Virus record (IMG/VR): IMGVR_UViG_3300019757_000003
Coordinates: 1-64,000 of that record
DNA from: a virus
DNA: 64,000 nucleotides
Strand: one strand, 5' to 3'
A model generated the notes under the pieces. That model saw nothing but the letters and a program-made list of their open reading frames with translations, searched no databases and had not been told where the DNA came from. Made by a program: the position numbers and the translations under genes. The stretch's first letter is position 1, and every line of letters begins with the position of its first letter. This document shows, one piece after another, positions 6,687-35,258 of this stretch.

Positions 6687-9326
6687 ATGAAAACAGAAGA
6701 GGCAAAGTACTTCACAGCAAACCCTGAGAAACCAGCAACAATGATAACACCTAAGTTAGTTAGGTATGCTTGTAACAATGCAGTTAAGAGAATCCATGAA
6801 CATAACAATGGTAAAACTCAAAGTATTCAAAATACAAGTACTCACAAGAATCACTTACAACTTAAAGCAATTAGAGCTAAGGCTTTGAGTACAGTTGCAA
6901 TGGACAGTAACTTATTAGAGAGTATTAGTACTGCTCTTAATGAAGTTAACAATGTATCAGGTTCAGAAAACAAGTTTGTACAACAACACCTTGGTGGTAT
7001 GATAGCTTCTTTCATAGTAAGTTCTCCTAAGAACCACTTCAAAAAGATTAACTCTAATATCAATGGAGTATCTTGGAAAGAGTTAGGTGAAGAGTCAAGA
7101 GGAGCTGGTCTTGCTATACTAGAAGAGCTACAAGCTATAGTACCTGATTCAGTTCTTGAGAAGAAGATTACTCTAATCAAAGGAAGTAAAGTTAATGCTA
7201 AAGAGACTTATTACCACTTCCCAGTAAGACCTATGAAAGTTAAAGTAAAAGATATGCTTAAAGGTTTACACTTCATCTCTGATTTAAAGAAAGGTAAAGT
7301 ACCAGCAGATAAATCAAAGCACACAGTAAAAGAACTTATGGGTGCTGAAGCTTTCAAAATCTCTCCTCAAACAAAAGTGGCTCAGAACTTCCTTAAAGAC
7401 CCAAAGGCTGCTATCAAATTATCTATTGACAAAGATCTTATGTTTGAGATTGCAAAACATAGTAAAGCTTTTATTATGACAATGGAAGAAGAAATGAGAG
7501 AAAGTCAAACTCACAATACAATCATTGAGAAGAGAATGCTTGACGAATTACTACTTGAAGTAAATGAGGTACATGAAGCTTTAACCAATCCAACTGGTTT
7601 TGTTGCTAATACATTCCTTGACTTAACAGGAAGATTTTACTCAAAGAACAACAAATACTCTCTTATTGCTGTCCAAGCAGGTGGTAAACTACTCTATAAC
7701 TCAGTTGAGGGAGAGGTTATCAATAAAGAAGGATTCAAACAACTTATGATCTCTGCTGGTCAAATGATTGGTAAGAAAACTTCATCCAAGAAGGCAATAG
7801 AAATCTACAATAGCTTTGATACAGATGAAGAGAGATTTGAGGCTATCCTTGCAACCAATGGTGAGATGCCAACAGCAGAATACACTCTGCTTGACTTCAA
7901 AACCAATGAGAAAGCTTATGCTGAGATCTACGCAAGAACATCAGATAGAGCAGAGGGTCCTGTTGTTATGGAAGAGCTGACAAAGGAAGAGAGAAAAGTA
8001 ATCTTAATGGCATTTCATCATGAAATCTATGAAGAGAACAGATCTATCAAGGCTGACGCTTACGATAAAGTTGCTAAATGGCTTAAAGAAGACCACTATC
8101 TTGGTAAATTGATTCAAGCCATCAAAGACTACCATACAAAAACAGTAAGCCACTTTATTCTTCTTAAAGACTTTGCTGCTGGTGGTCTAATTTGGTGGTC
8201 AATGGCTCTTGGTTCTGAGAAAATGGCTAAAATTGCTCATGTATATGGTAATTGCTCAGAGTTCAATGACCCTTATATCTTTATTATTAAGGAAATCTTT
8301 AGACTTATGGGAATAACTACTCCATCTGACAATGCTGTAAGAACTCTTAGAGATCAAATTAAAGAGACTCTACAAGCAATCTTACATGGTGGTACATTTA
8401 AGACAGCAGCAAGTGCTCTTAGGCAGCTAGCAAATGACAATCCTGCTTTAGGTGGATTGGCAAAGCTTAAAGAGAGTGAGTTGAAGAGTTGTTTTGTATC
8501 AATCTTTGGTGAAAAGATTCTATTGATTGAGTTGTTTACAACTTGGACAAACAGCATCTACACAACTGAGAATCCATCACTATCATGGAATATTGACGGT
8601 AGACATGGTCAAACTCTTGGTAGAGGTGCTAAGTCTAAATACACTATTGATGATATTTACACTCCAGATACTGTAAACAGCCCAAGAGGTGTAAAACAAG
8701 TCAAGTTTATTACAGAAATACCATTCTCTGAAATTGGTGGTGAAGCAGTTAAAGGTGTTGAGGTAGAGGAGGAGTACTCTTTGGCTAAAGTGCTAAATGA
8801 CATGGCTAAAGGGAATCCTGACCATATAACAGAATATGAAAGTGCTAGATTAAGAGGAGCTAGTGCAAACTTCTTACATTATCTTGACCCAATGGCTGTA
8901 GAAGCAATTGCTACACTTCTTCAAGGAGGCTTATTTGAAGTAATTCATGATAACTTTGGAACTCATCCAAATAACATGAGTTTAGTTGCTCAAGGAGCTA
9001 AGAATGCTATGCACAAGATTAACAAAGGTGTAGAGCAAGCTGATGGTACATTTAAACCATACCTACAACATGTAGCAGACCAAATCTGTGATAAAGCAAA
9101 TGAGAGATTATCTTACTTTGCAAATATGTTTGTTGTAGATAAAATCAGTAAAGAATTAGCTCTTAAAGCTGCAACTGATGGTACACCGTTTGACAAAGCA
9201 GAGTTTGACAGACTTTGTAAAGAACAGTATATAACTCCTACTAGAACAGTTAGTAGATTTGTATGTGACATTACACCATTAGATGATAAAGAGATTGGTA
9301 AATTTGACCATTTCTTGCAAGTATAA
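6687..9326 (+). CDS. single-subunit T7/T3-type DNA-dependent RNA polymerase (divergent)
   Basis: DLTGRFY (DxxGR), motif A LLKDFAAGG, motif B RDQIKETLQAILHGG, ANFLHYLDP (T7 PNFVHSQD), motif C VIHDNFGTHP. Start placed at ATG 6687 after AAAGGA rather than at TTG 6606. Confidence 0.88.
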   Translation: MKTEEAKYFTANPEKPATMITPKLVRYACNNAVKRIHEHNNGKTQSIQNTSTHKNHLQLKAIRAKALSTVAMDSNLLESISTALNEVNNVSGSENKFVQQHLGGMIASFIVSSPKNHFKKINSNINGVSWKELGEESRGAGLAILEELQAIVPDSVLEKKITLIKGSKVNAKETYYHFPVRPMKVKVKDMLKGLHFISDLKKGKVPADKSKHTVKELMGAEAFKISPQTKVAQNFLKDPKAAIKLSIDKDLMFEIAKHSKAFIMTMEEEMRESQTHNTIIEKRMLDELLLEVNEVHEALTNPTGFVANTFLDLTGRFYSKNNKYSLIAVQAGGKLLYNSVEGEVINKEGFKQLMISAGQMIGKKTSSKKAIEIYNSFDTDEERFEAILATNGEMPTAEYTLLDFKTNEKAYAEIYARTSDRAEGPVVMEELTKEERKVILMAFHHEIYEENRSIKADAYDKVAKWLKEDHYLGKLIQAIKDYHTKTVSHFILLKDFAAGGLIWWSMALGSEKMAKIAHVYGNCSEFNDPYIFIIKEIFRLMGITTPSDNAVRTLRDQIKETLQAILHGGTFKTAASALRQLANDNPALGGLAKLKESELKSCFVSIFGEKILLIELFTTWTNSIYTTENPSLSWNIDGRHGQTLGRGAKSKYTIDDIYTPDTVNSPRGVKQVKFITEIPFSEIGGEAVKGVEVEEEYSLAKVLNDMAKGNPDHITEYESARLRGASANFLHYLDPMAVEAIATLLQGGLFEVIHDNFGTHPNNMSLVAQGAKNAMHKINKGVEQADGTFKPYLQHVADQICDKANERLSYFANMFVVDKISKELALKAATDGTPFDKAEFDRLCKEQYITPTRTVSRFVCDITPLDDKEIGKFDHFLQV

Positions 9327-9342
9327 AACTATCTATTAGAGT

Positions 9343-9354
9343 CCTCTTCGGAGG
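9343..9354 (+). repeat. CCTC-TTCG-GAGG tetraloop hairpin, copy 1 (others at 10281-10292 and 14383-14394)
   Basis: Identical 12-mer in three intergenic regions; no U-tract follows. Confidence 0.75.
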
Positions 9355-9373
9355 ATTCGTATAGGTTGTTATT

Positions 9374-9565
9374 ACTTCAGTAACCTCAATAAAACCTCTA
9401 TTACAATTATACTCTCATACTACCATATATGATTGTCCCTAATTCAGAGGTTTAGAGGGTACTGAAGTTACCTAATAAGCTAAAACTTATCCAACAACTC
9501 TATAAGAATATACTCATACACTACCATATGTATTTGTCCCTAGATCTTGGAGTTAGAGTGAGTTT
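9374..9565 (+). ncRNA. two tandem long hairpins with conserved terminal loop and bulge (putative structured RNA)
   Basis: Unit 1 9374-9468, unit 2 9483-9565; stems differ in sequence but pair; shared loop CTC.....CTACCATA and bulge TGTCCCTA. Confidence 0.5.
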
Positions 9566-9769
9566 GGTGGTTTGGACCTACAATCTAATGCTCGTACCTT
9601 GAGTCTAGCTCAAAGTCGAGTCCACAGTCGAACTGAAATAACTCAGTCCCTTCGTTTGTTAGATAAAAGGGAGAACCTTTTAAGACCTCATATGAACTTA
9701 TTTTCTTAATTATCTAACGTCTCAGTAAGACGATAACTGCTACACATTCAAGTTTAAAGGACTTACACA

Positions 9770-10273
9770 ATGGAAAACACAGAAAACACAACAGTGACAG
9801 TAGAGAGTTTAGTAGTATCGGCAACCAAAGCCTTGAGTGAGCATGGAAGAGATAGATTACTAGCTAGATTAGCTTCTGAATCAAGAATGTTTAAATTACA
9901 GCAAGATAGAACGTATGGGCTTAGAACTCGTGATGAATCTGAAGAAGCTGCTTTAGTAACACTACTTTCTCAAAGAAAGAAGAACAAAGTAGAGAACACT
10001 GATGAAGACAGAAGTTTAAAATCTATCCAAGACGGTCAAACTATGTATATTGCCTCATTGCTAGAATATGCTAAGTTGCCGAAAGTCATTCAAAAGATTA
10101 TGTCTTATGTCGAGATATGTGGTGGATTATTTCAGGAGAGAACTCAGTACAACCGTATCCCAGAAGGTTATATGCTGACTGACAAAGATATGGACAGTAT
10201 CGAGGTCTATGAAGATTTAATCCTAGACTGGTATGCTACAGCTGGTACAGAGACTGATTACTCACATCTCTAA
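9770..10273 (+). CDS. hypothetical early protein
   Basis: 167 aa ORF with an AAAGGA RBS. Confidence 0.7.
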   Translation: MENTENTTVTVESLVVSATKALSEHGRDRLLARLASESRMFKLQQDRTYGLRTRDESEEAALVTLLSQRKKNKVENTDEDRSLKSIQDGQTMYIASLLEYAKLPKVIQKIMSYVEICGGLFQERTQYNRIPEGYMLTDKDMDSIEVYEDLILDWYATAGTETDYSHL

Positions 10274-22854: not shown

Positions 22855-23307
22855 AGTAGAAATACTTTAGTAACTTAAATTAAAGGATTGAAGATGACTG
22901 ATGGTAAAAATTACACTGAAGTTAATGAGAGAATAGCAAAAAAAGTAGAACAAGAGTTAGACAATTTTGAAAAAGGTGAAATAGTGATAATGTGGAATAA
23001 AGGAGACCTATATCCAAAAGTTACTAGATATAACAAAAAGTTAGGTGAAAGATACATAGATAACTCAGGACATAGTTACAACTTTGTAGCTAAGTTCACA
23101 GATAATCCTTGTGAGGTTGTACTATGAGAAAGTTAATATTACTAGGACTACTTGTGAGTTATTCTAACGCTGTCTCTCTCAAATGTGAGTTAGAACTTAA
23201 TAAAGCTACTAGAATTGCTATGGCTTATGCCATCAGTGGAGTTGGCTTTAAAGCTATGTTCATGGCTGATAGGAGAGCTAAAAAGATATGTGGTAAGGAA
23301 TATTAAA

Positions 23308-24399
23308 ATGAATATACAAGATTATGTTATAAATATAGAGGATAGTAGTTTACAAGATAGACTAAAGTTAAGACAAGTGTTACTTGATAATGGGCAAGAA
23401 ATATACAATGCTGAGCATTCTACTCTGCTAAAGGTACACTTAAAAAAAAGTACAGAGTATAGGCACTCTTACGACAGTTGGAGGGTAACTGCAACAGTTG
23501 AACCCAACATCTCACTAGAAAACTTTATACAAAAGTTTAAAACTAGTAATAAGCTAAGAAATTTAGCATTCTATAAAGATAGTGGTGAAGAATGGACTGA
23601 TGATGAGTGTACAACTATTAATGAATTCTTAGGAATCACTGATAATTATGTGGGAAATATAGCAAAAGATTTAAAATATTACTTTGATGATGGTGGCTCC
23701 TATACAAACACAGCTTACTCAAATTGGTTTACACAAGAGAAAGAAACTAATTTCTCTAATTGTCTACAGATAAAATATGAGGATTGTTTTATGGAAGAGT
23801 CTAAGAACCATAAAGTAAGAGAAAAAAAAGAGGTGGAACAAGAAATTAAAGTAGGTCAAATCTGGACTTCTAAGAGAACTGGCAAAGTTGTTCGTATCTC
23901 AGAGATTAGGCAAGTAACACCTTCAGGGAACCTTATCTTCGCTAATGGATTTAGTACTTTCATAAAAGAGTGTATATTTAGAGAAAGATTTATACTAAAA
24001 GATGTAGAACCTAACATACCAAATCTATGTTGTGAGACAGCATTACCAACTTGCTCTAATGAGCCAACAATACAAACAAATAAGGAAAATACAATGAATG
24101 CAACAAAAGAACAATTAGACTTAGAGCTAGTAAAGAGACAAATAGCACAACTACCAGCAGTTAAAGATGCTAAAGTTAAAAAAGTTAAAACAGACCTAGA
24201 GTCAAGAAAACCTTTTACTGTTGTAGTTTATGATGAAAATGGTAAGTACCACTCTACAGTATACTACAAAACACTAAAGAAAGCTGAGAGATTTAAAGAT
24301 GACTACTTAGCTACGAAATATGGTTATGGCTGTACAATTACTATCCATAAAGAAGTAAGTGCTTACAGTACTAAAGCTCCTATTGTAAAGGTTAAGTAA
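23308..24399 (+). CDS. modular hypothetical protein; contains the domain found standalone at 29042-29329
   Basis: AAGGA RBS then ATG 23308; a second in-frame RBS+ATG at 24094; segment RNLAFYKDSGEEWT...FDDGG...NFSNCLQIKYE. Confidence 0.65.
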   Translation: MNIQDYVINIEDSSLQDRLKLRQVLLDNGQEIYNAEHSTLLKVHLKKSTEYRHSYDSWRVTATVEPNISLENFIQKFKTSNKLRNLAFYKDSGEEWTDDECTTINEFLGITDNYVGNIAKDLKYYFDDGGSYTNTAYSNWFTQEKETNFSNCLQIKYEDCFMEESKNHKVREKKEVEQEIKVGQIWTSKRTGKVVRISEIRQVTPSGNLIFANGFSTFIKECIFRERFILKDVEPNIPNLCCETALPTCSNEPTIQTNKENTMNATKEQLDLELVKRQIAQLPAVKDAKVKKVKTDLESRKPFTVVVYDENGKYHSTVYYKTLKKAERFKDDYLATKYGYGCTITIHKEVSAYSTKAPIVKVK

Positions 24400-25116: not shown

Positions 25117-26674
25117 TGAATAAAGATGTAGTAAAGAAAGTAATTATTACACGCTACTAAATAACTAATAGACTCTAAACATAAAGAGTCTTTTAGTACA
25201 GTTAATAAAGAAGTAAAAATAAAGGAAAGAACTGGGTATTATATTATGGTCTTATGTGGCAGAGGGTGTTATTAAAGAGTTAGCTCCAAAAGAGCTTAGT
25301 GAACTAAATGAGTATATCTCTACAAATGAACTAAATAAGAAGGATTGTTTAAGTTGGTGTGGTGATAGAGACTTTGATTTAGCATTTAATTGGGATAGTG
25401 AACTAGACATAGCAGTAGCTAAACCTAGGTTAGAGAAGCTTTATAAAAAATTGAAAAAAGCTATAAAAAAGAGAGGTTACCTATTAGAGATAGACTTTGG
25501 AAGTTGGAATGATGAACAACTAGAGTTTTATGGTAACTTTATGTATATATTAAAAGAGAAGCAAACATCAAATAAAGGAAAGAGATGACAAGTAAACTAG
25601 AGTTTAAAAAACTAGAGAAAATAATGTCTTGGAAAGAAGTACAAGACTATCTTAAACGGAATAAAGGTTATAGACTCCCTTTAATTGATGAAATAGAGTC
25701 TATTAAGAATACAAATAACTATTGGTTAAATAGTGAAGTGATAGAGGTAGAGAATGGTATAGTACCTGCTAAAGTAGTACATACTAGCTTAGGTATGACT
25801 AATGTAAATACTCTATTAACAGTTATACTAATTAGAGCATTAGAGAGTGTACTATGGACTTCTAAAGTATATTACTTAGCTAAGATACCTCATTATGATG
25901 TTGACAAACCTTATAGTAAATCAGCTTTGTATGGATTAGACCATATTACACAATCTATGAATGCACACGATTTAGTTGTGTTTAAGGAGACTGAATGACA
26001 TTTGAAATTAAACTATTTAGTAAGAAATTTGGATACTACATAGAGTTGGACTACCATCAATATCTACATAAGAATGGTAAACTTAGAGATGACACACTAT
26101 ACAAAGGGAAACCTACTGGTTTGTTCAAGAGTAAGAAGAAAGCTTTAAAAGCTATAAAAGGATATTATAAAAGGAATAATATATGTTAGAGATATATAGA
26201 ATTTGGTTCAAAAGTCACATAATGGACATTATGATAGGTATGGGAGTATTTACTGCGATAGCTTCTGCTTTTCAAGAAGATGCCTTACAAGCAGGTGTAT
26301 TCCTAATAATAGGAACTATATGGTTTGTAGGTTCACTAATAATGAGTACACTACAAGAAATTCAAGACACTCAGTAAAGAGTCTAAAAAATCGCTACTAA
26401 GACCATAACAACACTCTATGGTCTATAAAGATGAACGCTGAAATAAGTGGAGTCCGAGAAGCACCTGAACTAGGTCAGTGATAACAACAAGTATAGTTTA
26501 CTAGGCATCGGCTAGTGTAGGTTAAAACCCTACAAATATATAATTTATATCGTTACGAGTTTTACAGTTCCCAGGAGTAATAAGTACACAGAGTACACTG
26601 CAAGTTAGCTGCAAAAGAAAGAAGAGATGGTAACTCTTGTTAAGCTGAGTGTCAACCACTGTGTACTTACCTAT

Positions 26675-26746
26675 GAAGTCTTAGCTCAGTAGGCAGAGCG
26701 AATCTACCAAGATTGCGTCACTGGTTCGATTCCAGTAGACTTCCCA
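26675..26746 (+). tRNA. tRNA-like RNA / pseudo-tRNA with a 4-nt anticodon loop
   Basis: Acceptor GAAGTCT/AGACTTC, TA, D-arm GCTC-AGTAGGCA-GAGC, stem AATCT-ACCA-AGATT, variable GCGTC, T-arm ACTGG-TTCGATT-CCAGT, then CCA. Confidence 0.75.
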
Positions 26747-27212
26747 GAGCACTACCTCAGAAGTGAGTTAAGAGAACTAGTCGTTTAATTGACGCAAGTA
26801 TGCCAACTATACTGACTTAGTTGGGCGTAATTAAAAATTAAAGGAATTAAAAAAATGACTAAACAAGAACTGCTAGAGTATATACAAAAAAGAGACGAAG
26901 AAGAACTGGAAGACATATTCTGTCTCATAGAATATGATGCCTTTCTTAATAAATCAGTTAAATATAGGGAACTTTTTGAAAAGAGTAACAACCCAGATGA
27001 TTTAATTACAGCAGTAGAGAACTATCTATTTGGCAACAAAGACTACTATGTAGATGTTAAGATCACTAATCAATCACCTAACAAAAAAGTAACATGGGTT
27101 TATGCAAAGTTTACTAAATACAGAGGTGGTAACTCTAGGTACTACAGCTTCTATGATTGGTCTGGATTTATCGAAAAATACTAAAAACAAAAACAAAATT
27201 AAAGGAATTAAA

Positions 27213-27617
27213 ATGGAAATAGATAAAGAGATAGTGCAAAAAGTACATAGAAATGGGTTCTACATAACTGAAGAAGTAATAGCTATTAAGTTCTTAAACA
27301 AGATTAAGACTTCTAAACAAAGAGGTATTAACTTTGAATTAACAATCCCTCAGTTTAGAAGATTGATGTTATTAAAAACTTGCCATTATAGTGGTATAGA
27401 ATTATACAAAGGTAAACCTAGAGATGAAGAAAATCCTAGTTTTAATTCTATGACAATTGATAGAATTGATAATACAATTGGTTACACTAAAGACAACAGC
27501 GTTGTAGCAGCCTATGGAGTGAACCAACTTAAAGGAGAGCTAGAGAGAAACAATAATGGTGTCTCTCTAAAACATCTGATTAAGATGGTTAAAGTTTTAG
27601 CTAAATACATGGATTAA
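27213..27617 (+). CDS. Srd-like (putative anti-sigma) / HNH-fold protein
   Basis: SKQRGINFELT...KTCHYSG...TIDRIDNTIGYTKDN...NQLKG; ATG 27213 after AAAGGA. Confidence 0.55.
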   Translation: MEIDKEIVQKVHRNGFYITEEVIAIKFLNKIKTSKQRGINFELTIPQFRRLMLLKTCHYSGIELYKGKPRDEENPSFNSMTIDRIDNTIGYTKDNSVVAAYGVNQLKGELERNNNGVSLKHLIKMVKVLAKYMD

Positions 27618-29041
27618 GGGTAATAAATGAAACAAAAGAGCATTAATGAGTTTGCTAAATTAGCAGTTAGAGACTACAAAGAGCTAGAGATTGGTAAAAT
27701 ATTTTATGAAGGTACTAAAGAAGTAGAGATACTATCAGACGTGTACCTAAGTGATAGTGGTAGTATATTTGTAGATGTAAAAGAAACCTTTGCAGATGGA
27801 TTTACCTACGAAACACCACTAAGCCTACGAGATCGAGGGATTATAAATGGGGGTTACAACCCTTGGCTGTTGTTTAGTAATAAGGAAATAGCTTTAGAAC
27901 ATAACTCAATTAATTGGCAAACTGGAACTAGATACTGTGAGGTACTGCGAGAACAAGTTCCTATATGGGTTCATAAACCTATGGGACAAAAGATGAGTAC
28001 TAATGAAGTACAAACTTTATTCAAACCTAAAGGGAATTAGATGAAACAAATAATAACAAATGGTGAATTGGAAATTGGCAAAAACTATTGGTGCAAACCT
28101 AAAATAAATACATACAGCAAAGCTATCATATTAACTGTAGGGGAACATATGAACAATAAATTCATTGGAAGCCATATATGGTGTACAGAAGACAATAATC
28201 AAGGACTAGAGAAATATACTATAATCGGTCCTGTTGAAGAACCAGATTGGGGTAAGTAGAGGTACTGCAAGTAGGTGTTTTGATGCACCTTTAAGTATTT
28301 TATATAATATTTAGAGGTGTGTCAAATTTTTAGACTTGTATGGACACGTTCCCTGTTTACTAATTAATCACTAGTAATCATATAATTAAACACAAATCTC
28401 TAATATCTTCCTCGGTGCTGTAATAGTAATAAAGCTGTCCTCTAGGTACACTATCCTTTGAATAAACAAAATAGTAAGCATACTCGTAAGAATGTAGAAG
28501 CTTTCAAAAATAACATTCCAGAGAGGTCAAGTACTCCATTATAATAGTATGGTGATTCGTATAAAAGTAATGCAACCTTTTAGGCTCACTACCTATTCAA
28601 TCAATTTTAAATAAAAACAAAGGGTCAAATATGACACAATTAACAATAACAGCAATTCTAGCACTATCTAACAAAAAAATGAATCCATCAATCAAACTCA
28701 AAAATATCAAAACAATCATTAAGAACGCAAAAGAGTCTTATGGTAACACTGGTAAGAAAATCTCACTAGGTAAAATAAATACTTGTAATGGACAACAATC
28801 AATCAAGTATCTAGCTGATGAAGATAAACTAGGTCTAGTAGAGGTTGAAGTGGAGTCTATCAGACTACAAGCTATCAATGTAACAGAGTGTACGCAAGGT
28901 ATAGTATTTGATAAGAAAGTGACAGAACTCATAGCATGCTCTCCAATACTTAGTAATCTAGGTAAAAGTGTGACAAGTACATTCCTCTAGGAATTACTAC
29001 AACTACCCTCTTTGGGTAGTATCTTAAATTAAAGGAACAAA

Positions 29042-29329
29042 ATGAGAAGAAATCTAGCAATATATAAACTATCAGGAGAACCTTGGACTCAAGAAGAACT
29101 CGATAAAGTGTATGCCTATACTGGTAGTAGGAGAGAAGAAAGAACCTATTCAAGTGAATTATCGAATAAGTTTATATTCGATGATGGAGACCAAAGACAT
29201 CCACAACACACAGATCTTTGGTCAATGCAAGAAGATGATTCAAACTTTAAGAACTGTAAACAAGTAGCTTATGAAGAAATCTTTAATAAGCCAAAGTTTA
29301 ATTACTATATAAAGGCTAGAGATGATTAA
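29042..29329 (+). CDS. small protein ending in PKFNYYIK tag
   Basis: 95 aa; its domain also occurs inside 23308-24399. Confidence 0.7.
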   Translation: MRRNLAIYKLSGEPWTQEELDKVYAYTGSRREERTYSSELSNKFIFDDGDQRHPQHTDLWSMQEDDSNFKNCKQVAYEEIFNKPKFNYYIKARDD

Positions 29330-29537
29330 AGTAGGAGACAGAGTAAGAGTTAATGATAATGCAATATGTGTAAATAATGAAATGAGAGAACTATTAGGTA
29401 AAACAGTAGAAGTTGAAAGCTTCAGTAGTGGTGGTGTACGATTATGGGATGAAAATAAAAAACTTATTTCGTGGTGGGTATTACATGATATAACACTAGT
29501 ACCAAAATTTAAATATTATATAAAAGGAAAGAGATGA
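29322..29537 (+). CDS. small SH3/KOW-like protein ending in PKFKYYIK tag
   Basis: KVGDRVRV; paralog of 30391-30618. Confidence 0.7.
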   Translation: MIKVGDRVRVNDNAICVNNEMRELLGKTVEVESFSSGGVRLWDENKKLISWWVLHDITLVPKFKYYIKGKR

Positions 29538-30178
29538 TTTTAGAATTCATAACAGAGAAACCAAGCAACGCAGGAGCTTGGAAAGCAATTAACAAATTAG
29601 AAGAGTTTACCTTAGTACAGAAAGTATTACTTTGGTTAAACATAGTATTGACTTATGACTTTAAAAGTCTTAAGAAAAATACTTTAAACATAATAACCCC
29701 TCACAATATTGAAGAGTATTGTGAGGGGTTAATAGAGGTACTAAGTCAAGAATTAGACTTAATTGTAAATCCTAAAATAGAAGCATTGAAAATAAGTAAA
29801 CCATTTGGTACAACTTATGATGAATGTTTAATGGGTGTACTTGAGATGATTTATAAAGATACTCCTACACATAATACAAAAAGTCTAATATCAAATTTAA
29901 GTACTGGAAAAGATATAGAACTAACAAATGCTAGTATACAACTTTTTATGGGGACAGTAACACCTATCACAGTGGCTATACTACATAGTACTAATGTATT
30001 CTTTAAAGAGAGATTTAGGAAGCACTTCATACCAACCAATTCACAAGAGATTATAATATTAGACAATGAATCTAATATAAGACCATACTTAGTAAATAAA
30101 CTGCTAGAAGCTAGTAAAAAAGGTAAAACTAGTACAGTGTTACCTACTATTAAGTTAAAGCACAATGATGGAGTATAA
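29534..30178 (+). CDS. hypothetical protein within the MoxR/vWA cluster
   Basis: 214 aa ORF, overlaps both neighbours. Confidence 0.65.
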   Translation: MILEFITEKPSNAGAWKAINKLEEFTLVQKVLLWLNIVLTYDFKSLKKNTLNIITPHNIEEYCEGLIEVLSQELDLIVNPKIEALKISKPFGTTYDECLMGVLEMIYKDTPTHNTKSLISNLSTGKDIELTNASIQLFMGTVTPITVAILHSTNVFFKERFRKHFIPTNSQEIIILDNESNIRPYLVNKLLEASKKGKTSTVLPTIKLKHNDGV

Positions 30179-30398
30179 ATATCCTATTTATAAAGAGTTT
30201 GAACTTACTGGTGAGATAGTAAAATTCACATCTTTAAACTCAGGTACTGTTATGGTAAGTGGTAATAGTGCTTTCTCAGATGAAGTAGGTTCTAAATATG
30301 ACTCCCGGACAGACCATACAAGAAAAGATGTTTGGAAAGACACAGATTTTAGAGAACCTAGTAAGTTTAATTACTATATAAGGAAAGAGGATGTTTAA
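30165..30398 (+). CDS. small protein ending in PSKFNYYIR tag
   Basis: 77 aa ORF. Confidence 0.7.
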   Translation: MMEYKYPIYKEFELTGEIVKFTSLNSGTVMVSGNSAFSDEVGSKYDSRTDHTRKDVWKDTDFREPSKFNYYIRKEDV

Positions 30399-30618
30399 AG
30401 CAGGGGATATGGTTACTATAAGCTATGATGCAAGATGTATAAACAATGAAACGAAAAAACTCTTAGGTAAAACAGTAGAAGTCAAAAGTACTGCCTCAGG
30501 AGGTTTCTTGGTATGGGATGAAAATAAAATAAATGAATCCTATTGGTTTGGATCAGAACTAACACTAGTACCAAAGTTTAAATATTATATAAAATCAAAG
30601 GAAAACAATGAATCATAA
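30391..30618 (+). CDS. small SH3/KOW-like protein ending in PKFKYYIK tag
   Basis: KAGDMVTI; shares C.NNE...LLGKTVEV.S..SGG...WDENK with 29322-29537. Confidence 0.7.
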   Translation: MFKAGDMVTISYDARCINNETKKLLGKTVEVKSTASGGFLVWDENKINESYWFGSELTLVPKFKYYIKSKENNES

Positions 30619-31450
30619 ACAATATGATGAGATAAAGAAAATTATAGAGGCAGGGATAGCTGTACACCTAGTAGGACCTAGTGGTAGTGGTAAATCTACA
30701 ATTATAAAACAAGTAGCTAAAGACTTAGGCTTAGAGTACTACTATATAGGTTGTACAAGGCAGACCACAGAGGGTAAATTTATTGGTTTCAATAGTGTAG
30801 CAACACTAGAGTATATGTCAACATTATTTAGAAAAGCTGTAGAGTTTGGAGGGATATTTTCGTTAGAGGAGTTAAACGGAATTGATCCTAATACAGTGTT
30901 AGTATTAAACTCATTGGATAATGGTTCAATGGCTTTCCCTGATAGGATTGTAGAAGTCCATAAGGATTTTAGACTAGTAGCTACTAGTAATCCTCCTTCA
31001 GATGAACATGGAGCTATGGATGAGCTAGATTTCTCCACTAAAAATAGATTTCAAGAGATATGGCTTGACAAAGATGACAAGTTATGCGAAGAACTGTCTT
31101 CTTCAGAAGCTATGGCAGAAGTAGAAGCCTTAAGAAAGTTATTGGAAGACAATGGTTCATCTAAAAAACTTACTATGAGAGATGAGATGAGATTAGAGAA
31201 ACTTAAAGCTTTAGGGATTAAAAACCCACTCTTAAAACTTATAGATACAGAATCTGAAGAACTGAAAAGTTCTATATCAGATAAAATAGAAGAGGGAACT
31301 AAGAGAGTATTAGAGGAACAAAAAGCTAGATTACAAGCTGCTCTGGAAGAAAAGAAAAGATTGCAGGAAGAAGCTGAGTTAGCTAAACTGACCCAACACG
31401 ATATGCAAGATTTAGAAAGTTATATCAATAAAATCAAGGAGAACAAATGA
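30608..31450 (+). CDS. MoxR/CobS-like AAA+ ATPase (AAA_5)
   Basis: Walker A GPSGSGKS, Walker B variant FSLEELN, HKDFRLVATSNP (sensor I), LDFSTKNRF (Arg finger), C-terminal coiled coil. Confidence 0.85.
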   Translation: MNHKQYDEIKKIIEAGIAVHLVGPSGSGKSTIIKQVAKDLGLEYYYIGCTRQTTEGKFIGFNSVATLEYMSTLFRKAVEFGGIFSLEELNGIDPNTVLVLNSLDNGSMAFPDRIVEVHKDFRLVATSNPPSDEHGAMDELDFSTKNRFQEIWLDKDDKLCEELSSSEAMAEVEALRKLLEDNGSSKKLTMRDEMRLEKLKALGIKNPLLKLIDTESEELKSSISDKIEEGTKRVLEEQKARLQAALEEKKRLQEEAELAKLTQHDMQDLESYINKIKENK

Positions 31451-32280
31451 CAATAGACAAGTATGTAAAAGATAAACCTCTACTAGACACACATCCAAAG
31501 AGTTGGTTAGAGGTAGTAGATAACACTTGGAGTGTGTTAAACTTCAATAATTTAGACCACTTTAAACAGTGCGTATCTTCAATTACACAAATAGAAGACA
31601 ATAGCTGTTATATCAGTTATAAACAAGCTTTAAATGAGCTTGTAAGAGGTGTTGGTACAATACCTGAGCAAGAATATAAACTGATTAAAGATAAGGTGAG
31701 AGAGTCTCTTATAGCTAAGAAACTAATCTCAAAAAATATCTATAAAGGTTATGAGTATTCGGTAGAGGGTGATACAATAGATGTTGCTAGGTATGCTTCA
31801 GGTAATCCAGAATGCTTCATAAAGCCGAAACATAAAGGTAAAGTGCATTTTTATGAGCTTTACATTAACATCTCAGTGTCTAGTGGAATGCAGGATAGTG
31901 TATTAAAAAGTAAAATTGCTAGACTACTAGCTACTATACAATTACTTGAAGAAAAGAAAATCTACATTAAAGTGAATGTGGTAGACACCTCAGGTAATTT
32001 AAATACTGGAGAAGGTAAACCTAACTTGATGCTAATAATCCCCTTGTTCTCACACAGACAACCAAAGTCTATCAAGACTATGTCTTCTGTACTTAATGAA
32101 AGGCTCCTTAGGAAATTCTCATTCGCTATCTCGGAAGACATATATGGAGAGAATCTATCTAATGGGTATGGTACACCAATTAATCTACCTAGTGTGATTA
32201 ACTTAAGTGAGAACCTAGATGAAGTTAGAATAGCTTCAGACATACTAGACCAGTTCATAAAACCATGCAAGAAGAGGTAA
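31447..32280 (+). CDS. vWA-like partner of the MoxR ATPase
   Basis: EGDTIDVARYASGNPECF followed by ELYINISVSS (degenerate MIDAS), GYGTP; directly follows the AAA gene. Confidence 0.6.
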   Translation: MTIDKYVKDKPLLDTHPKSWLEVVDNTWSVLNFNNLDHFKQCVSSITQIEDNSCYISYKQALNELVRGVGTIPEQEYKLIKDKVRESLIAKKLISKNIYKGYEYSVEGDTIDVARYASGNPECFIKPKHKGKVHFYELYINISVSSGMQDSVLKSKIARLLATIQLLEEKKIYIKVNVVDTSGNLNTGEGKPNLMLIIPLFSHRQPKSIKTMSSVLNERLLRKFSFAISEDIYGENLSNGYGTPINLPSVINLSENLDEVRIASDILDQFIKPCKKR

Positions 32281-32495
32281 AGTTCAAGATAGGTGACAAG
32301 GTTAGAATGCCCTCTAAAAGACCTACTAGATGGAACCCTAGTGGTGAAATGGATAAGTATTTAAACACAACACAAACTATCACACAAATAGATAGAGAAT
32401 GGTTCAGCTTTGAAGGGGATGGAGATTGGGGTTTCAGACTAGATCAAGTAACATCAGTACCAAAATTCAATTACTACATAAAGAAAGGAGACTAA
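32265..32495 (+). CDS. small KOW-like protein ending in PKFNYYIK tag
   Basis: FKIGDKVRM; C-terminus SVPKFNYYIKKGD. Confidence 0.7.
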   Translation: MQEEVKFKIGDKVRMPSKRPTRWNPSGEMDKYLNTTQTITQIDREWFSFEGDGDWGFRLDQVTSVPKFNYYIKKGD

Positions 32496-32496
32496 A

Positions 32497-33531
32497 GTGC
32501 AAGGTTACTGGAAAGATAGTAATAAATTTATCAAGGATAAGATACCTTGGTATGTTAAAAATAGCAAGTTAGGACGAACCTTAAACAAAGTAGATGTATG
32601 GAATCAGGAGTACAACCATACTTCATTTGGTTGGGTAGGAGACTTCTATAATAAAGTACCAATAAAGTCAGAGTACATTGAGAAACAAATATTCTTAGTA
32701 ACTGTAGAGGTTATAGGTAAAGAAAATGATTGGAAGAGAGGAGTAGAGTCTGATGTAGTTATAGAACATAAGATATTAGCATATAGAACTACAAAATGGG
32801 AAGGTCATTTATATGACTATGCTTTTTTACCTTATGATGAGTGGGGCTCAAGATGGTATGAGATGAATGCCTTAAATAGTAAACATAATGATTACTACAA
32901 CGACCAAAAACAACAAAGAAAGTTTTGGGCTAGGGATTGGTGGAAGGATGAACACTATTCTTTGAATAACTACTTTAGGTGGAAATGGTATAACAATGGT
33001 GCAGAAGTAACTAAAGTAGAACCATATTTAATAGATGGGCTACCCCAATTTGTAACTATAGAAGAAGAGACTTTCTTAAATAGTTCAACTCCATACGGAG
33101 GAGAGATGTTAGATACTAAATACTACCTAAAAGACATTAGGATAGATTCTAATACAGTTAAAAGGTTAGAGTGGTTGGAAATAGAGAAACACTCTCAAGA
33201 CGTTACTTGGACTGAACAGAGAAGGTGGACACACAAACCTAAGACAAGCCAAGATATTTATTCAGATAAAGAGTTGAGAGAGTTTAAATATTCCATTGTG
33301 TTAGACGTTGAGGATGATTGGATGGATGAATTTAGTGATATAGACCATACAGAGGCAGATAGACAGCAATGGGATTATGATTATGATGAATCTTGGGAAG
33401 ATTACTCAGATACTACACTATTTGATGATGGAGTCTTAGACTTGGAATGGTTAGGGAGTATACCTGAAAAAGGTAAGTACTATAGTTATAAAAATGAGGA
33501 CTACTACGAGAATATGGTAGAGATAAACTAA
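32497..33531 (+). CDS. Trp/Tyr-rich hypothetical protein with acidic C-terminus
   Basis: 344 aa ORF, GTG start after AAGGAG. Confidence 0.65.
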   Translation: MQGYWKDSNKFIKDKIPWYVKNSKLGRTLNKVDVWNQEYNHTSFGWVGDFYNKVPIKSEYIEKQIFLVTVEVIGKENDWKRGVESDVVIEHKILAYRTTKWEGHLYDYAFLPYDEWGSRWYEMNALNSKHNDYYNDQKQQRKFWARDWWKDEHYSLNNYFRWKWYNNGAEVTKVEPYLIDGLPQFVTIEEETFLNSSTPYGGEMLDTKYYLKDIRIDSNTVKRLEWLEIEKHSQDVTWTEQRRWTHKPKTSQDIYSDKELREFKYSIVLDVEDDWMDEFSDIDHTEADRQQWDYDYDESWEDYSDTTLFDDGVLDLEWLGSIPEKGKYYSYKNEDYYENMVEIN

Positions 33532-35258
33532 GTAGGTAACTCTACTTAGATACTAAATAAAAGGAATAAAATGACAGAGATAACATTTGAAGAGATGTTC
33601 AATGTAGAAAGTGACACTAGATGGGCTAATAAGATTATTATGGACTCTTTAGGCAAAACTAAGTATGACCCTAAAGAACTGTACAAAGACACTGGTAATT
33701 ACATGGTAGAGTTGTCAATAAATGGATTTACTATAGAACCAATAGATTTACATGAGTTTATAAAAAGAGAGTACCAAATTTTTATGGAACACTGGAGAAA
33801 GAGGTATGAGAATATAGAAGATGAGATCAATAGAAGAGTAGATGAGAGAGTCCAGATTATCTTAGATAAAGTGGCTGATACAGCAGAAGAACTGAGAGAA
33901 TACAAATAAAAAAGGAAAGAGATGTTTAGAGGCACAGTGAGTCACAATCATCGAGAGATATGGTTAAATGGTGAGAAAACTCCTGTTGTTGAGCTAATAA
34001 ATATCTTTGATGATTGTGATAAAGAGATAAGAGATCACGCATGGATAAATGAGGAGTCCTTAAAAGGATTTATACCTAAGAATAATAGCTATAAAATAGA
34101 TATAACGTTTGAAGCAGACTTAGGGGAATATTGGAGTATTGGTAAAGACTATAGACAAGTAAAGAAACCTAAGTTTACTAATATCAGAGATATTGTATTT
34201 GTTAGAAGCTATAAAAACAAAACTAAAGGAAAGTAATGAAAAAGTTAAGTGATGTAAAGTTTGATATAGACCAAAAAGTGTTTATCTTATGTACGAATAA
34301 GGTTAAGAAAGTAAAGGTGATAGGTATTAAGAGAGAAGACGATAGAATTCTCTATACATTAGAGAATGGGGAACTTAAACTTACAACAAGACAACAAGAA
34401 GATGTGTTTAGTTGTACTGAAGACTTAATTAAATCTATTACAGAAGGATTGTAATGCTAGATTTAGAATTAGTTAAAAAGTATAAGAAAGAGTTTGACTA
34501 TTTGGTTAATGGTGGTTCTGTATGGTTCAGATACAGAATTATAGAAGGTTCTGAGGGTAACGTTGGAATGACTGTATGGTACTTATCTAACGTAGTTGAT
34601 ACTGAATGGGAAGAAAACACCACTGACTATTGGAGCCTACCTTATACAGATTTACAAGTAGTTATCAACGATAAGTATGTTGAGTTTAGAAAAGCTTTAG
34701 CAGAAGGTAAGGTGATACAAGTAGATAAAGCAATGTTTTATGATGAAGATTTTGATGGCTTAGACTCTGATGGTTCTTATTGGATAGACATTGCTACTTC
34801 ACAGCCTACTTTTGGATTACAACCTCATTGCTATCGTATAAAACCAGCAGAACCTAAATTTAGACTAGGAGATTGGATAACAAATATAGAAACTAATGAA
34901 ACATACCAAGCTGTAGAGGAAGACTTAGAGTACGAATGTACTTTATGGGAACCTGTACACGATAAATTCTGTGTGATGTACAACACAGATACAGTCAGTC
35001 AGTTCTATATAGTAGTAAGGTATAACTACTATAATGAGATAGTGAAGAAACATTACTCAGAGTATGGTGTACATTATACTAATGTAGCTCCTATAGAGTT
35101 CTTACAAACAATAAAAGACTAGTTGGTAGCATTAGAGATATGTAAGTCCTTTCAATAAAACCATCGGAGTGATTAAATTTTAGCTTTGTGAAACACCTAG
35201 CGACAACCGTAAAGTTATAGTAGTATTTGGTCTACTATCTTAAATTAAAAGGAATAAA

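Follow-up and report, generated by a model that had tools for sequence, protein, structure and literature searches.

A common C-terminal peptide on five small proteins encoded around the MoxR/vWA-like gene pair of a probable N4-like phage

Short docking motifs at protein ends serve to organise replisomes and AAA+ machines; the clamp-binding motifs, the SSB tails and the tail of NorD on NorQ are cases in point. In the NorQD system, hydrophobic residues at the C-terminus of NorD bind the post-sensor-1 loops of NorQ, and deletion of the last two residues abolishes co-purification (PMC13036017). vWA domains have also been proposed to capture extended peptides (PMC7159879). Among phages, homologues of N4 gp24 (AAA) and gp25 (vWFA) were reported in 2009 in two N4-like roseophages, with the potential function given as "Unknown" (PMC2784036), and we found no function assigned in the literature to an AAA+/vWA pair of this type. 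Here we describe five small open reading frames (ORFs), interleaved with a MoxR-class AAA+ gene and a gene for a NorD-like vWA protein, which end in a common peptide, P(S)KF[NK]YYI[KR], hereafter called the tag. They lie in a 64,000-nt stretch of viral DNA (positions 1 to 64,000 of IMG/VR record IMGVR_UViG_3300019757_000003), the whole of which is called the window, and genes are named by their first position in it. No earlier description of a lineage-specific tail on small, fast-evolving accessory proteins within one phage operon was found in the literature. As an observation the case is well founded, and a function for the tail can be proposed only tentatively.

Four described systems invite comparison. 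In T4-type phages, promoter-early stem-loop cassettes reportedly flank shuffled small genes, as Arbiol et al. are said to have described in 2010. The present locus shares with these mobile cassettes the short conserved borders of small genes, the mosaic hyperplastic region and the repeat-bounded duplicated unit, but their borders are non-coding signals conserved as DNA, whereas the repeat here is coding and varies synonymously. NorQD likewise has a MoxR-class AAA+ protein (NorQ/midasin-like) beside a NorD-like vWA protein, with a short hydrophobic C-terminal stretch of the partner binding the NorQ ring (PMC13036017). There, however, the docking tail is on the vWA partner itself and not on separate small proteins, and the phage vWA proteins, unlike NorD, end ..IKPCKKR and lack the conserved aspartate of the metal ion-dependent adhesion site (MIDAS). 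The MoxR-vWA peptide-capture systems, too, encode the pair together with variable partner proteins, but these are conflict systems of cells, in which large effector fusions occur and the MIDAS aspartates are mostly intact (PMC7159879), unlike the phage pair, which is a conserved replication-module block without those aspartates. Finally, clamp-binding motifs provide a precedent for one short terminal motif on many unlike proteins addressing one hub in a replication setting (PMC4564189, PMC12867686); the tag differs from them in having no Q, in being aromatic and basic, in being followed by 1-7 residues and in being lineage-specific, whereas clamp motifs are nearly universal.

The five tagged ORFs end in ..NKPKFNYYIKARDD (29042; also ..PKFNYYIKARDD), ..LVPKFKYYIKGKR (29322; ..PKFKYYIKGKR), ..EPSKFNYYIRKEDV (30165; also ..PSKFNYYIRKEDV), ..LVPKFKYYIKSKENNES (30391; also ..PKFKYYIKSKENNES) and ..SVPKFNYYIKKGD (32265; ..PKFNYYIKKGD), each copy standing 3-7 residues ahead of the stop codon. 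These tag copies are numbered as sites 1 to 5 in this order, and their coordinates are given in Table 1. When all six frames of the window, and likewise of the full genome of 114,270 bp, were searched for [PS]KF[NK]YYI[KR], exactly these five places were found. An earlier interpretation made from the DNA letters alone, hereafter the sequence-only reading, had claimed both that five ORFs carry a common C-terminal motif and that no other ORF in the window does; both claims hold, and the tails had been given correctly. The sole look-alike in the genome, KKFGYYIE, occupies residues 10-17 of a 64-aa ORF (25995-26189) and is internal, not C-terminal. At the DNA level, a degenerate 20-mer of the tag had 5 exact matches and, with up to 3 mismatches allowed, 14 matches against 2.7 expected, a number reached by none of 100 shuffles; in a position-weight scan the five sites scored 28-35 bits and the next best site 12 bits. 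Against IMG/VR the degenerate 20-mer gave 100 chance matches in AT-rich contigs and a 24-mer gave 2, a metagenome scan for the back-translated motif returned chance matches and strain contigs, and protein word searches with 29322 and 29042 found strain variants only. PKF[NK]YYI[KR] is a lineage-specific C-terminal peptide, of ~10-14 residues, appended to small accessory proteins.

The bodies that carry this peptide are of several kinds. Sequence comparison upholds the earlier count of at least three body types: 29322, 30391 and 32265 are paralogues (58% and 41% identity, with 30391 and 29322 at 58%), and the likeness of 29042 and 30165 to each other, and to the SH3-like family formed by these three, is confined to the surroundings of the tag. 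The body of 29042 has its counterpart in ORF 23305-24399 (residues 85-165, E = 7e-14), where MEESKNHKVREKKE replaces the tag, in agreement with the earlier statement that a domain copy near 23.55-23.79 kb is without it. In that ORF the 29042-type domain is followed by an SH3-looking IKVGQIW.. segment and further C-terminal regions, an order of domains that matches the succession of the two individual genes 29042 and 29322; for the SH3-like part BLAST gave no confirmation. Glycosyltransferase-like leads obtained for 29042 from the ESM Atlas were of low confidence and were not used. 30165 has no detectable relative beyond its tail, and its last 21 residues (DVWKDTDFREPSKFNYYIRKE) align in a profile comparison, at low probability, to the SH3-like C-terminus (VWKDTDF..PSKF), which hints at a chimeric origin.

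Run against 1.84 billion representatives, a profile of the SH3-like family (six members) recovered 205 proteins at E <= 1e-3, and the domain frequently recurs in tandem within larger proteins. The hits cover profile positions 2 to ~55-62, the shared domain ending in W-x-F-x-x-x-D-I/L with variable sequence beyond; since the tag sits at positions 59-68, it is a lineage-specific extension outside the conserved SH3-like domain. Beyond the strain-level orthologue P0004, the only family member with a variant of the tag is P0013 (75 aa, ~45% identical), which ends ..KKVPKFNYHLKA (VPKFNYHLKA), is encoded on a 1,677-bp contig and has no locus in IMG/VR. Single-domain members from other phages (P0055, P0079, P0082-P0084, P0090, P0091 and P0112) have short aromatic ends (..YELW, ..YEIY, ..IKEW, ..IIEW, ..FKIDW), and tails on the SH3-like domain may be both common and lineage-specific.

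The AlphaFold2 (AF2) model of 32265, with a predicted local distance difference test score (pLDDT) of 88, shows a confident barrel that ends near residue 64, after which residues 65-76, which hold the tag, have no regular secondary structure (pLDDT ~70-83). All top Foldseek matches of this model are SH3-like barrels (NdhS, PsaE, PetP, YorP, the NusG KOW domain, Mib/Herc2 and SH3), with template modelling scores of 0.45-0.63 and probabilities of up to 1.0 but E values of only 0.01-0.2. Pfam has no match for 29322 and 30391, and 32265 scores 18.3 bits against Phage_ProQ_C_like, below the cut-off of 27. The three paralogues belong to an unnamed phage family, that of the 205 profile matches, for which the model of 32265 gives an SH3-like barrel fold. 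The earlier label "KOW/SH3-like" is accordingly right as to the five-stranded SH3-like barrel seen with AF2 and Foldseek, and does not extend to membership in a curated KOW or ProQ-C family by sequence.

These structural data bear on the idea that the tail is an extra beta-strand, which stabilises each protein or pairs the five with one another and needs no separate reader. The peptide has a high beta propensity and an alternating hydrophobic/basic pattern (F-Y-I and K-N/K-Y-K faces), its pLDDT is moderately high (70-83), and many SH3-like homologues end in short aromatic tails. AF2, however, assigns no strand to residues 65-76, three or more different folds would have to accommodate one and the same tail, distant homologues attain their fold in its absence, and a related phage, L152, described below, uses a chemically different tail in the same setting. 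We regard such a structural or self-associating strand as quite improbable.

The constraint on the tag was examined within the window and among strain versions of the operon, which are available in L146 (98% DNA identity), L147 (91%), L108 (86-90%) and L110/L117 (85%). Across the 8 tag codons of the five copies, 0, 1 and 7 columns vary at codon positions 1, 2 and 3, respectively (hypergeometric p = 1.8e-4); with two orthologous tag copies added, the counts are 1, 1 and 7 (p = 7.5e-4). Orthologous tags in the strain versions differ from those of the window by 4 synonymous changes and one I->V. The last of these, in the site-1 orthologue of L110/L117 (PKFNYYVK, DNA TATGTAAAG), breaks the TATATAAA core (to TATGTAAA), yet the peptide change is conservative. 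Over the same comparisons the bodies have diverged: 29322 is 56% identical to its orthologue P0002 (44% divergence, omega 0.65) with the tag intact, 30165 is 68% identical to its L110 orthologue (omega 0.69) with the last 18 residues up to the tag unchanged, and 29042 is 82% identical to its orthologue, while untagged neighbours have omega values of 0.22-0.33. The most diverged 200-nt bin (29%) adjoins a tag with 2 changes in 24 nt. These alignments show the peptide to be under purifying selection while the bodies evolve fast. Between the window and L117 (26702-30166 compared) there are 0 differences over 26702-28495 (1.8 kb), followed by 12-29% from ~29.1 kb on, so that a recombination breakpoint lies at ~29.1 kb, inside gene 29042, and the tagged region is a fast-evolving mosaic island at strain level in which the tails nevertheless stay fixed.

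Variation mostly at third codon positions, in a tag kept while the bodies diverge, places the constraint on the peptide and not on a promoter or ribosome-binding element. This is what the sequence-only reading had proposed from the third-position pattern, and the mostly synonymous differences of the orthologues agree with it. A promoter or ribosome-binding enhancer would be expected to be conserved at the DNA level irrespective of codon position and to recur upstream of other genes; neither was found. Agreement in frame among the tag copies, for its part, is uninformative: both other frames of AAGTTTAATTACTATATAAAG contain TAA, so an upstream ORF can read through the motif only in the tag frame. 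Programmed frameshifting at the tag was considered and rejected, as both other frames have stops and a slip past the TAA meets a TAG at site 1.

It could nevertheless be that the conserved 20-27 nt are a promoter, a processing site or a translational enhancer and that the peptide is incidental. From the end of each copy to the following start codon the distance is 7-13 nt. From 82 aligned upstream regions, the general initiation context of the phage is AAAT(T/A)AAAGGA-N5-7-ATG (examples at window 6670, 14445, 22207 and 29026), and the most frequent 11-12-mers of the genome, AAATTAAAGGA, AAAATAAAGGA and AAATAAAAGGA, are variants of it. The tag codons TAT-ATA-AAR plus a following G fit this context, and the overlap of the Y-I-K codons with the initiation context of the next gene explains why the Ile codon is ATA in 5/5 copies. 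Sites 2 and 4 are also weak sigma-70 matches (9/12), and the spacer at 33542 holds a weak look-alike at an equal distance from a start codon. Only the ~9 last nt of the tag, however, coincide with the general initiation context, which does not account for the P-K-F-N/K-Y part, and a nucleic-acid signal should not vary nearly always at third codon positions or lose its TATATAAA core through an I->V change. No tag-like copy was found upstream of any other of the ~180 genes in whole-genome scans, sigma-70-like sites are fewer than in shuffles (19 vs 35), and Rfam has no family matching the tag region. A T7-type or sigma-70 promoter at the tag was rejected on the position-weight scan and these sigma-70 counts. 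The 33542 spacer was likewise rejected as a sixth copy: ATACTAAATAAAAGGA, which follows the hairpin at 33528-33549, resembles the 3' half of the tag because both match the general ribosome-binding context of the phage, and this context together with the hairpin accounts for the likeness. A purely nucleic-acid function of the repeat is very improbable.

Comparison with related phages provides a second line of evidence. In Alteromonas phage PT11-V19, whose vWA protein is 43% identical to 31447, and in ~30 IMG/VR loci, the block runs in the order helicase, 114-aa protein, ~200-aa protein, MoxR, vWA, primase, and small tagged genes are absent; the 114-aa protein is conserved in N4-like phages 5' of the ~200-aa/MoxR/vWA block. 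The earlier idea of a host-manipulation or anti-defence system finds no evidence in the present data; in relatives the block is placed between helicase and primase. The exception is L152 (genome G001; complete, 97,089 bp), in which the homologues of the vWA (53%), the AAA+ (47%) and the 119-aa protein (53%; 28631 product versus L152 5348-5698) are the closest; the G+C content of the two phages is 32-34%. The L152 operon encodes, in order, proteins of 116 aa, 84 aa (tailed) and 212 aa, MoxR, 73 aa (SH3-like, tailed) and 97 aa (tailed), vWA, and 140 aa and 87 aa (both tailed). The tailed ORFs end KQLTLNI, SLTLNI, KLTLNI, QLTLHI and QIVLDI, each directly followed by the stop codon, which gives a strictly terminal common tail, [QKS]LTL[NH]I-COOH, on at least 4 body types. 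Its codons show 15 synonymous versus 3 non-synonymous pairwise differences (TTA/CTA/CTG, AAT/AAC, ATA/ATT), and the DNA pattern of the tail has 4 occurrences in the genome, all within the operon, and 0 in the control. By BLAST, no small protein of either phage has a relative in the other. In two related phages, then, one conserved operon has been filled with small genes that are unrelated between them, and the genes of either phage share a tail of their own, which is what a tag-and-reader arrangement would predict.

Shared or recurrent protein ends were also seen elsewhere among the relatives, and terminal short motifs may be a general feature of the replication module. The 114-aa protein ends ..GTKF[EDSAK]Y[LI]-COOH in many of the L153-L197 relatives, and several of their ~200-aa proteins end in SSB-like D[VI]PF-COOH tails; the KF.Y[LI] end was tried as a model for the tag and is kept as a lead only, as the orthologue in the window ends ..TSTFL. 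In L151 (vB_AmeP_PT11-V19, 9303-10237), the end EK[ED]D[GE]WI is common to three small proteins in a row, which have 88, 117 and 113 aa and SH3-like FK.GD repeats, and since this tail overlaps the next start codon the shared end is at least partly double-coding. In L194 (1810-2375), the TEGELK end of two ORFs is encoded by 21 identical nt, which include the Shine-Dalgarno sequence and ATG of the gene that follows; here the shared C-terminus is a DNA-level initiation signal.

The L152 tails raise the question of whether the hub is a host replication protein, such as the beta sliding clamp, to which the small phage proteins would be brought or which they would block. Three of the L152 ends (QLTLNI, QLTLHI, QIVLDI), at the extreme C-terminus, fit QLxLxL (PMC4564189; consensus QL[SD]LF, PMC12867686), the operon is part of the replication module, where helicase and primase flank it in relatives, a gene for a DnaN-like clamp is absent from both phages, and phage Mu MuC provides a precedent for terminal clamp-binding motifs in a phage protein (PMC12867686). 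The L152 tails as a group look like a putative clamp-type QLxLx[LI]-COOH pattern: 3/5 fit QLxLxI or QIxLxI and 2/5 have no Q. The window tag does not match the clamp motif (Q-L-[SD]-L-F or Q-L-x-L-x-L at the terminus), having K and not Q at position 1 and being aromatic and non-terminal; only the hydrophobic spacing, K-F-x-Y-x-I, agrees. Moreover, the clamp cleft and its motif are conserved in bacteria, so that a difference this large between the tails of two related phages with similar G+C is unexpected, and none of the large replication proteins of the phage has the tail. The clamp, or another host hub, is a rather improbable reader.

The pair encoded between the tagged genes deserves closer description. 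The 30608 product had been called a MoxR-class AAA+ ATPase, and the assignment is well founded: it matches Pfam AAA_5 (E = 1.8e-15, above the cut-off) and phrog_249 (E = 7.6e-33), its nearest matches in the PDB are the midasin AAA domains (1.4e-25), CbbQ/NirQ/NorQ (8.9e-9) and NorQ (2e-4), and it is 40% identical to a protein annotated as NirQ in Alteromonas phage PT11-V19. The MoxR clade is defined by a helix-2 insert (PMC7159879). The 31447 gene overlaps the 3' end of 30608 by 4 nt, and the pair is syntenic in 47 viral loci. An AF2 model of 31447 built with 41 homologues (pLDDT 86, predicted template modelling score 0.81) has the NorD vWA domain as its first Foldseek match (probability 0.98-1.0, E = 1.7e-4), followed by Rea1 MIDAS and the Ku80 vWA domain; VIA gave Z values, moderate in size, of 7.3 and 7.2 for NorD and 5.7 for MDN1 MIDAS, and then more than 30 vWA domains. 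A MIDAS has conserved aspartates at the ends of core strands 1 and 4, in the pattern DxSxS..D (PMC7159879). By inspection, strand 1 of 31447 (residues 134-141) is followed by N-I-S-V-S (S-I-S-Y-P in the family consensus), and the only invariant aspartate among the 41 sequences of the family is D112, before the core. What stands of the MoxR/vWA pair of the sequence-only reading is therefore a MoxR AAA+ protein with a partner of NorD-like vWA fold; a conserved MIDAS aspartate is not part of it. The 214-aa protein, which takes the place of the ~200-aa protein of the block, has weak C-terminal likeness only to the 212-aa protein of L152 (E = 0.15).

Peptide-level selection, a position outside the folded domain, the unlike bodies and the two-phage comparison together lead us to read the tail as a lineage-specific docking handle recognised by one partner, a reading to which we give about an even chance. 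The sequence-only reading, in which the motif recruits small proteins to the MoxR-vWA machine or the 214-aa protein, is supported in part. Small accessory genes, three SH3-like and two with other bodies, would have been inserted between the genes of the N4-like block; a common docking tail would let one reader bind these otherwise unlike proteins, and the last tag codons double as part of the translation-initiation region of the next gene. The leading candidate for the reader is the co-transcribed MoxR ring or the vWA protein, which is the constant neighbour in both phages and for which the docking of the NorD C-terminus on the NorQ ring provides an analogy; taken by itself, this assignment is tentative and unlikely, and another phage or host protein takes most of the remaining weight. 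In a more elaborate and doubtful form, confined to a sub-lineage of large N4-like phages, the MoxR/vWA pair or the fast-evolving ~200-aa protein would read a phage-specific C-terminal label borne by exchangeable small adaptor or effector domains of the operon, label and reader would co-evolve (PKF[NK]YYI[KR] here, QLTL[NH]I-COOH in L152), and the result would be a programmable, tag-addressed remodelling activity at the replication machinery.

Several observations weigh against the docking reading. The ~30 N4-like relatives keep the MoxR/vWA block without tagged genes, and the pair is therefore not dependent on such clients; nor does the 31447 family have a conserved MIDAS aspartate (41-sequence alignment, by inspection). 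The tag lies 1-7 residues from the protein end, as opposed to the strictly terminal tail of L152. Around the tag, the paralogues 29322 and 30391 share 32/33 nt, compared with 65% identity in the body, which hints at gene conversion or some nucleotide constraint; of their conserved codons, 1/12 differ synonymously in the tag versus 10/26 in the body, a difference that is not significant. Sites 1 and 3, between themselves and with their orthologues, show only 2 synonymous and 2 conservative non-synonymous changes, and peptide selection on these two non-SH3 tags (29042 and 30165) is weakly documented. Each of the five tags, moreover, is in contact with an SH3-like gene: three form the 3' end of that gene and two lie directly 5' of it, and the tags on the non-SH3 bodies form the exact 5' end of a duplicated SH3-like segment. 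This segment at 29294-29531, which consists of tag, ribosome-binding site, SH3-like gene and tag, has 74% DNA identity with 30363-30600, the homology starting at the first tag codon. Part of the pattern is therefore accounted for by duplication or recombination where the tags join the genes, and the two segments show that the tag spread with a duplicated unit of tag, SH3-like gene and tag, bounded by tags.

The same facts can be taken further, to the view that the tag is a relic of cassette boundaries. The peptide would be native to the SH3-like family, the tag-bounded segment would have been duplicated, 29042 and 30165 would have been joined upstream by recombination and carry a functionless tail, and the repeats would mainly serve or reflect gene shuffling. 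In addition to the duplicated segments, which run from the first tag codon to the second tag, this view can draw on the TAA in both other frames, which leaves only the tag frame to read through, on the single nucleotide by which sites 1 and 3 differ, on the sharp breakpoint near 29.1 kb in a strain-level mosaic region, and on 30165, a suggested chimera because its likeness to the SH3-like C-terminus (VWKDTDF..PSKF) extends past the tag. It does not readily explain why the proline before the tag is kept at sites 1 and 3 past the point where DNA homology ended (CCA and CCT, with an in-frame AGT insertion), why 18 residues of the 30165 tail have stayed unchanged while the protein as a whole diverged by 32%, or why the L152 tail is on at least 4 unrelated bodies with five different following genes, its DNA being too short and too diverged to serve as a recombination repeat. 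We consider the relic view unlikely, though with a real share of the probability.

Returning to the docking reading, the two-phage comparison, with the same operon and a different tail, makes the system testable. If the tagged proteins bind the AAA+/vWA pair, they would be a first handle on the substrates of the pair; if the reader is a host hub, the tails would mark a family of small host-directed phage proteins. Under either reading the tail could be used as a bait sequence to fish out the partner.

The genomic setting is as follows. The genome is complete, with direct terminal repeats and a G+C content of 32%, and the window is its first 64 kb. The window encodes a replication and packaging set of large terminase, DNA polymerase, primase, helicases and RNA ligase, and gene order matching that of N4-like relatives indicates that the phage is probably N4-like. 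BLAST against known phages found no similar DNA. The stretch is contained in 5 public DNA runs, all of them microbial-mat metagenomes, and no RNA run is listed among the sequencing runs that hold it. Strain differences are many in the metagenome contigs aligned to the stretch (the best-supported 40 of 433 rows, which were not used for counting). As had been noted earlier, each gene between 29042 and 32495 overlaps those next to it, the overlaps being 4-16 nt long, and the tightly packed run extends over 29042-33531, bracketed by short hairpins (Table 1).

Table 1. Coordinates of the genes, tag copies and hairpins of the tagged gene run and its flanks (positions in the window)
Position	Strand	Feature	Tag and tag position	Basis or remark
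28631..28990	+	119-aa core protein, untagged		orthologue of N4-like 114-aa protein; BLASTP vs L152-L197 E = 6e-43 to 4e-19
29003..29019	+	hairpin CTACCC-TCTTT-GGGTAG		directly 5' of 29042 ribosome-binding site; read from sequence
29042..29329	+	95-aa tagged protein	PKFNYYIK, 29291-29314	body homologous to residues 85-165 of ORF 23305-24399
29322..29537	+	71-aa tagged SH3-like small beta-barrel protein	PKFKYYIK, 29502-29525	
29534..30178	+	214-aa protein, untagged, at place of the ~200-aa protein of the block		no Pfam/PHROG match
30165..30398	+	77-aa tagged protein, own body	PSKFNYYIR, 30357-30383	
30391..30618	+	75-aa tagged SH3-like protein, 29322 paralogue	PKFKYYIK, 30571-30594	
30608..31450	+	280-aa MoxR-class AAA+ ATPase (NorQ/CbbQ/midasin-like), C-terminal coiled-coil tail		
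31447..32280	+	277-aa DUF7192 protein, vWA-like fold at ~residues 131-272		Pfam, AF2, Foldseek, VIA
32265..32495	+	76-aa tagged SH3-like protein, nearest family consensus	PKFNYYIK (start of PKFNYYIKKGD), 32460-32483	
32497..33531	+	344-aa protein, untagged, last gene of run		no family match
33528..33549	+	8-bp-stem hairpin CTAAGTAG-GTAACT-CTACTTAG		end of run; 100% conserved in L108

The hairpin at 29003-29019 possibly marks the start of the overlapping gene run. At the other end, the spacer that follows the 33528-33549 hairpin is 100% identical in L108 as well, where the flanking genes are 86-90% identical. Hairpins with 5-9 bp stems are found just 5' of the ribosome-binding context of many genes, also near 35.2, 37.4, 39.6, 47.5 and 56.1 kb, and could be N4-type hairpin promoters or sites of RNA processing or stability. 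In the gap before gene 28631 (window 28279-28326), a 20-bp AT-rich hairpin overlaps back-to-back sigma-70-like promoters, and a tRNA-like gene at window 26675-26744 matches the Rfam tRNA model with 46.9 bits.

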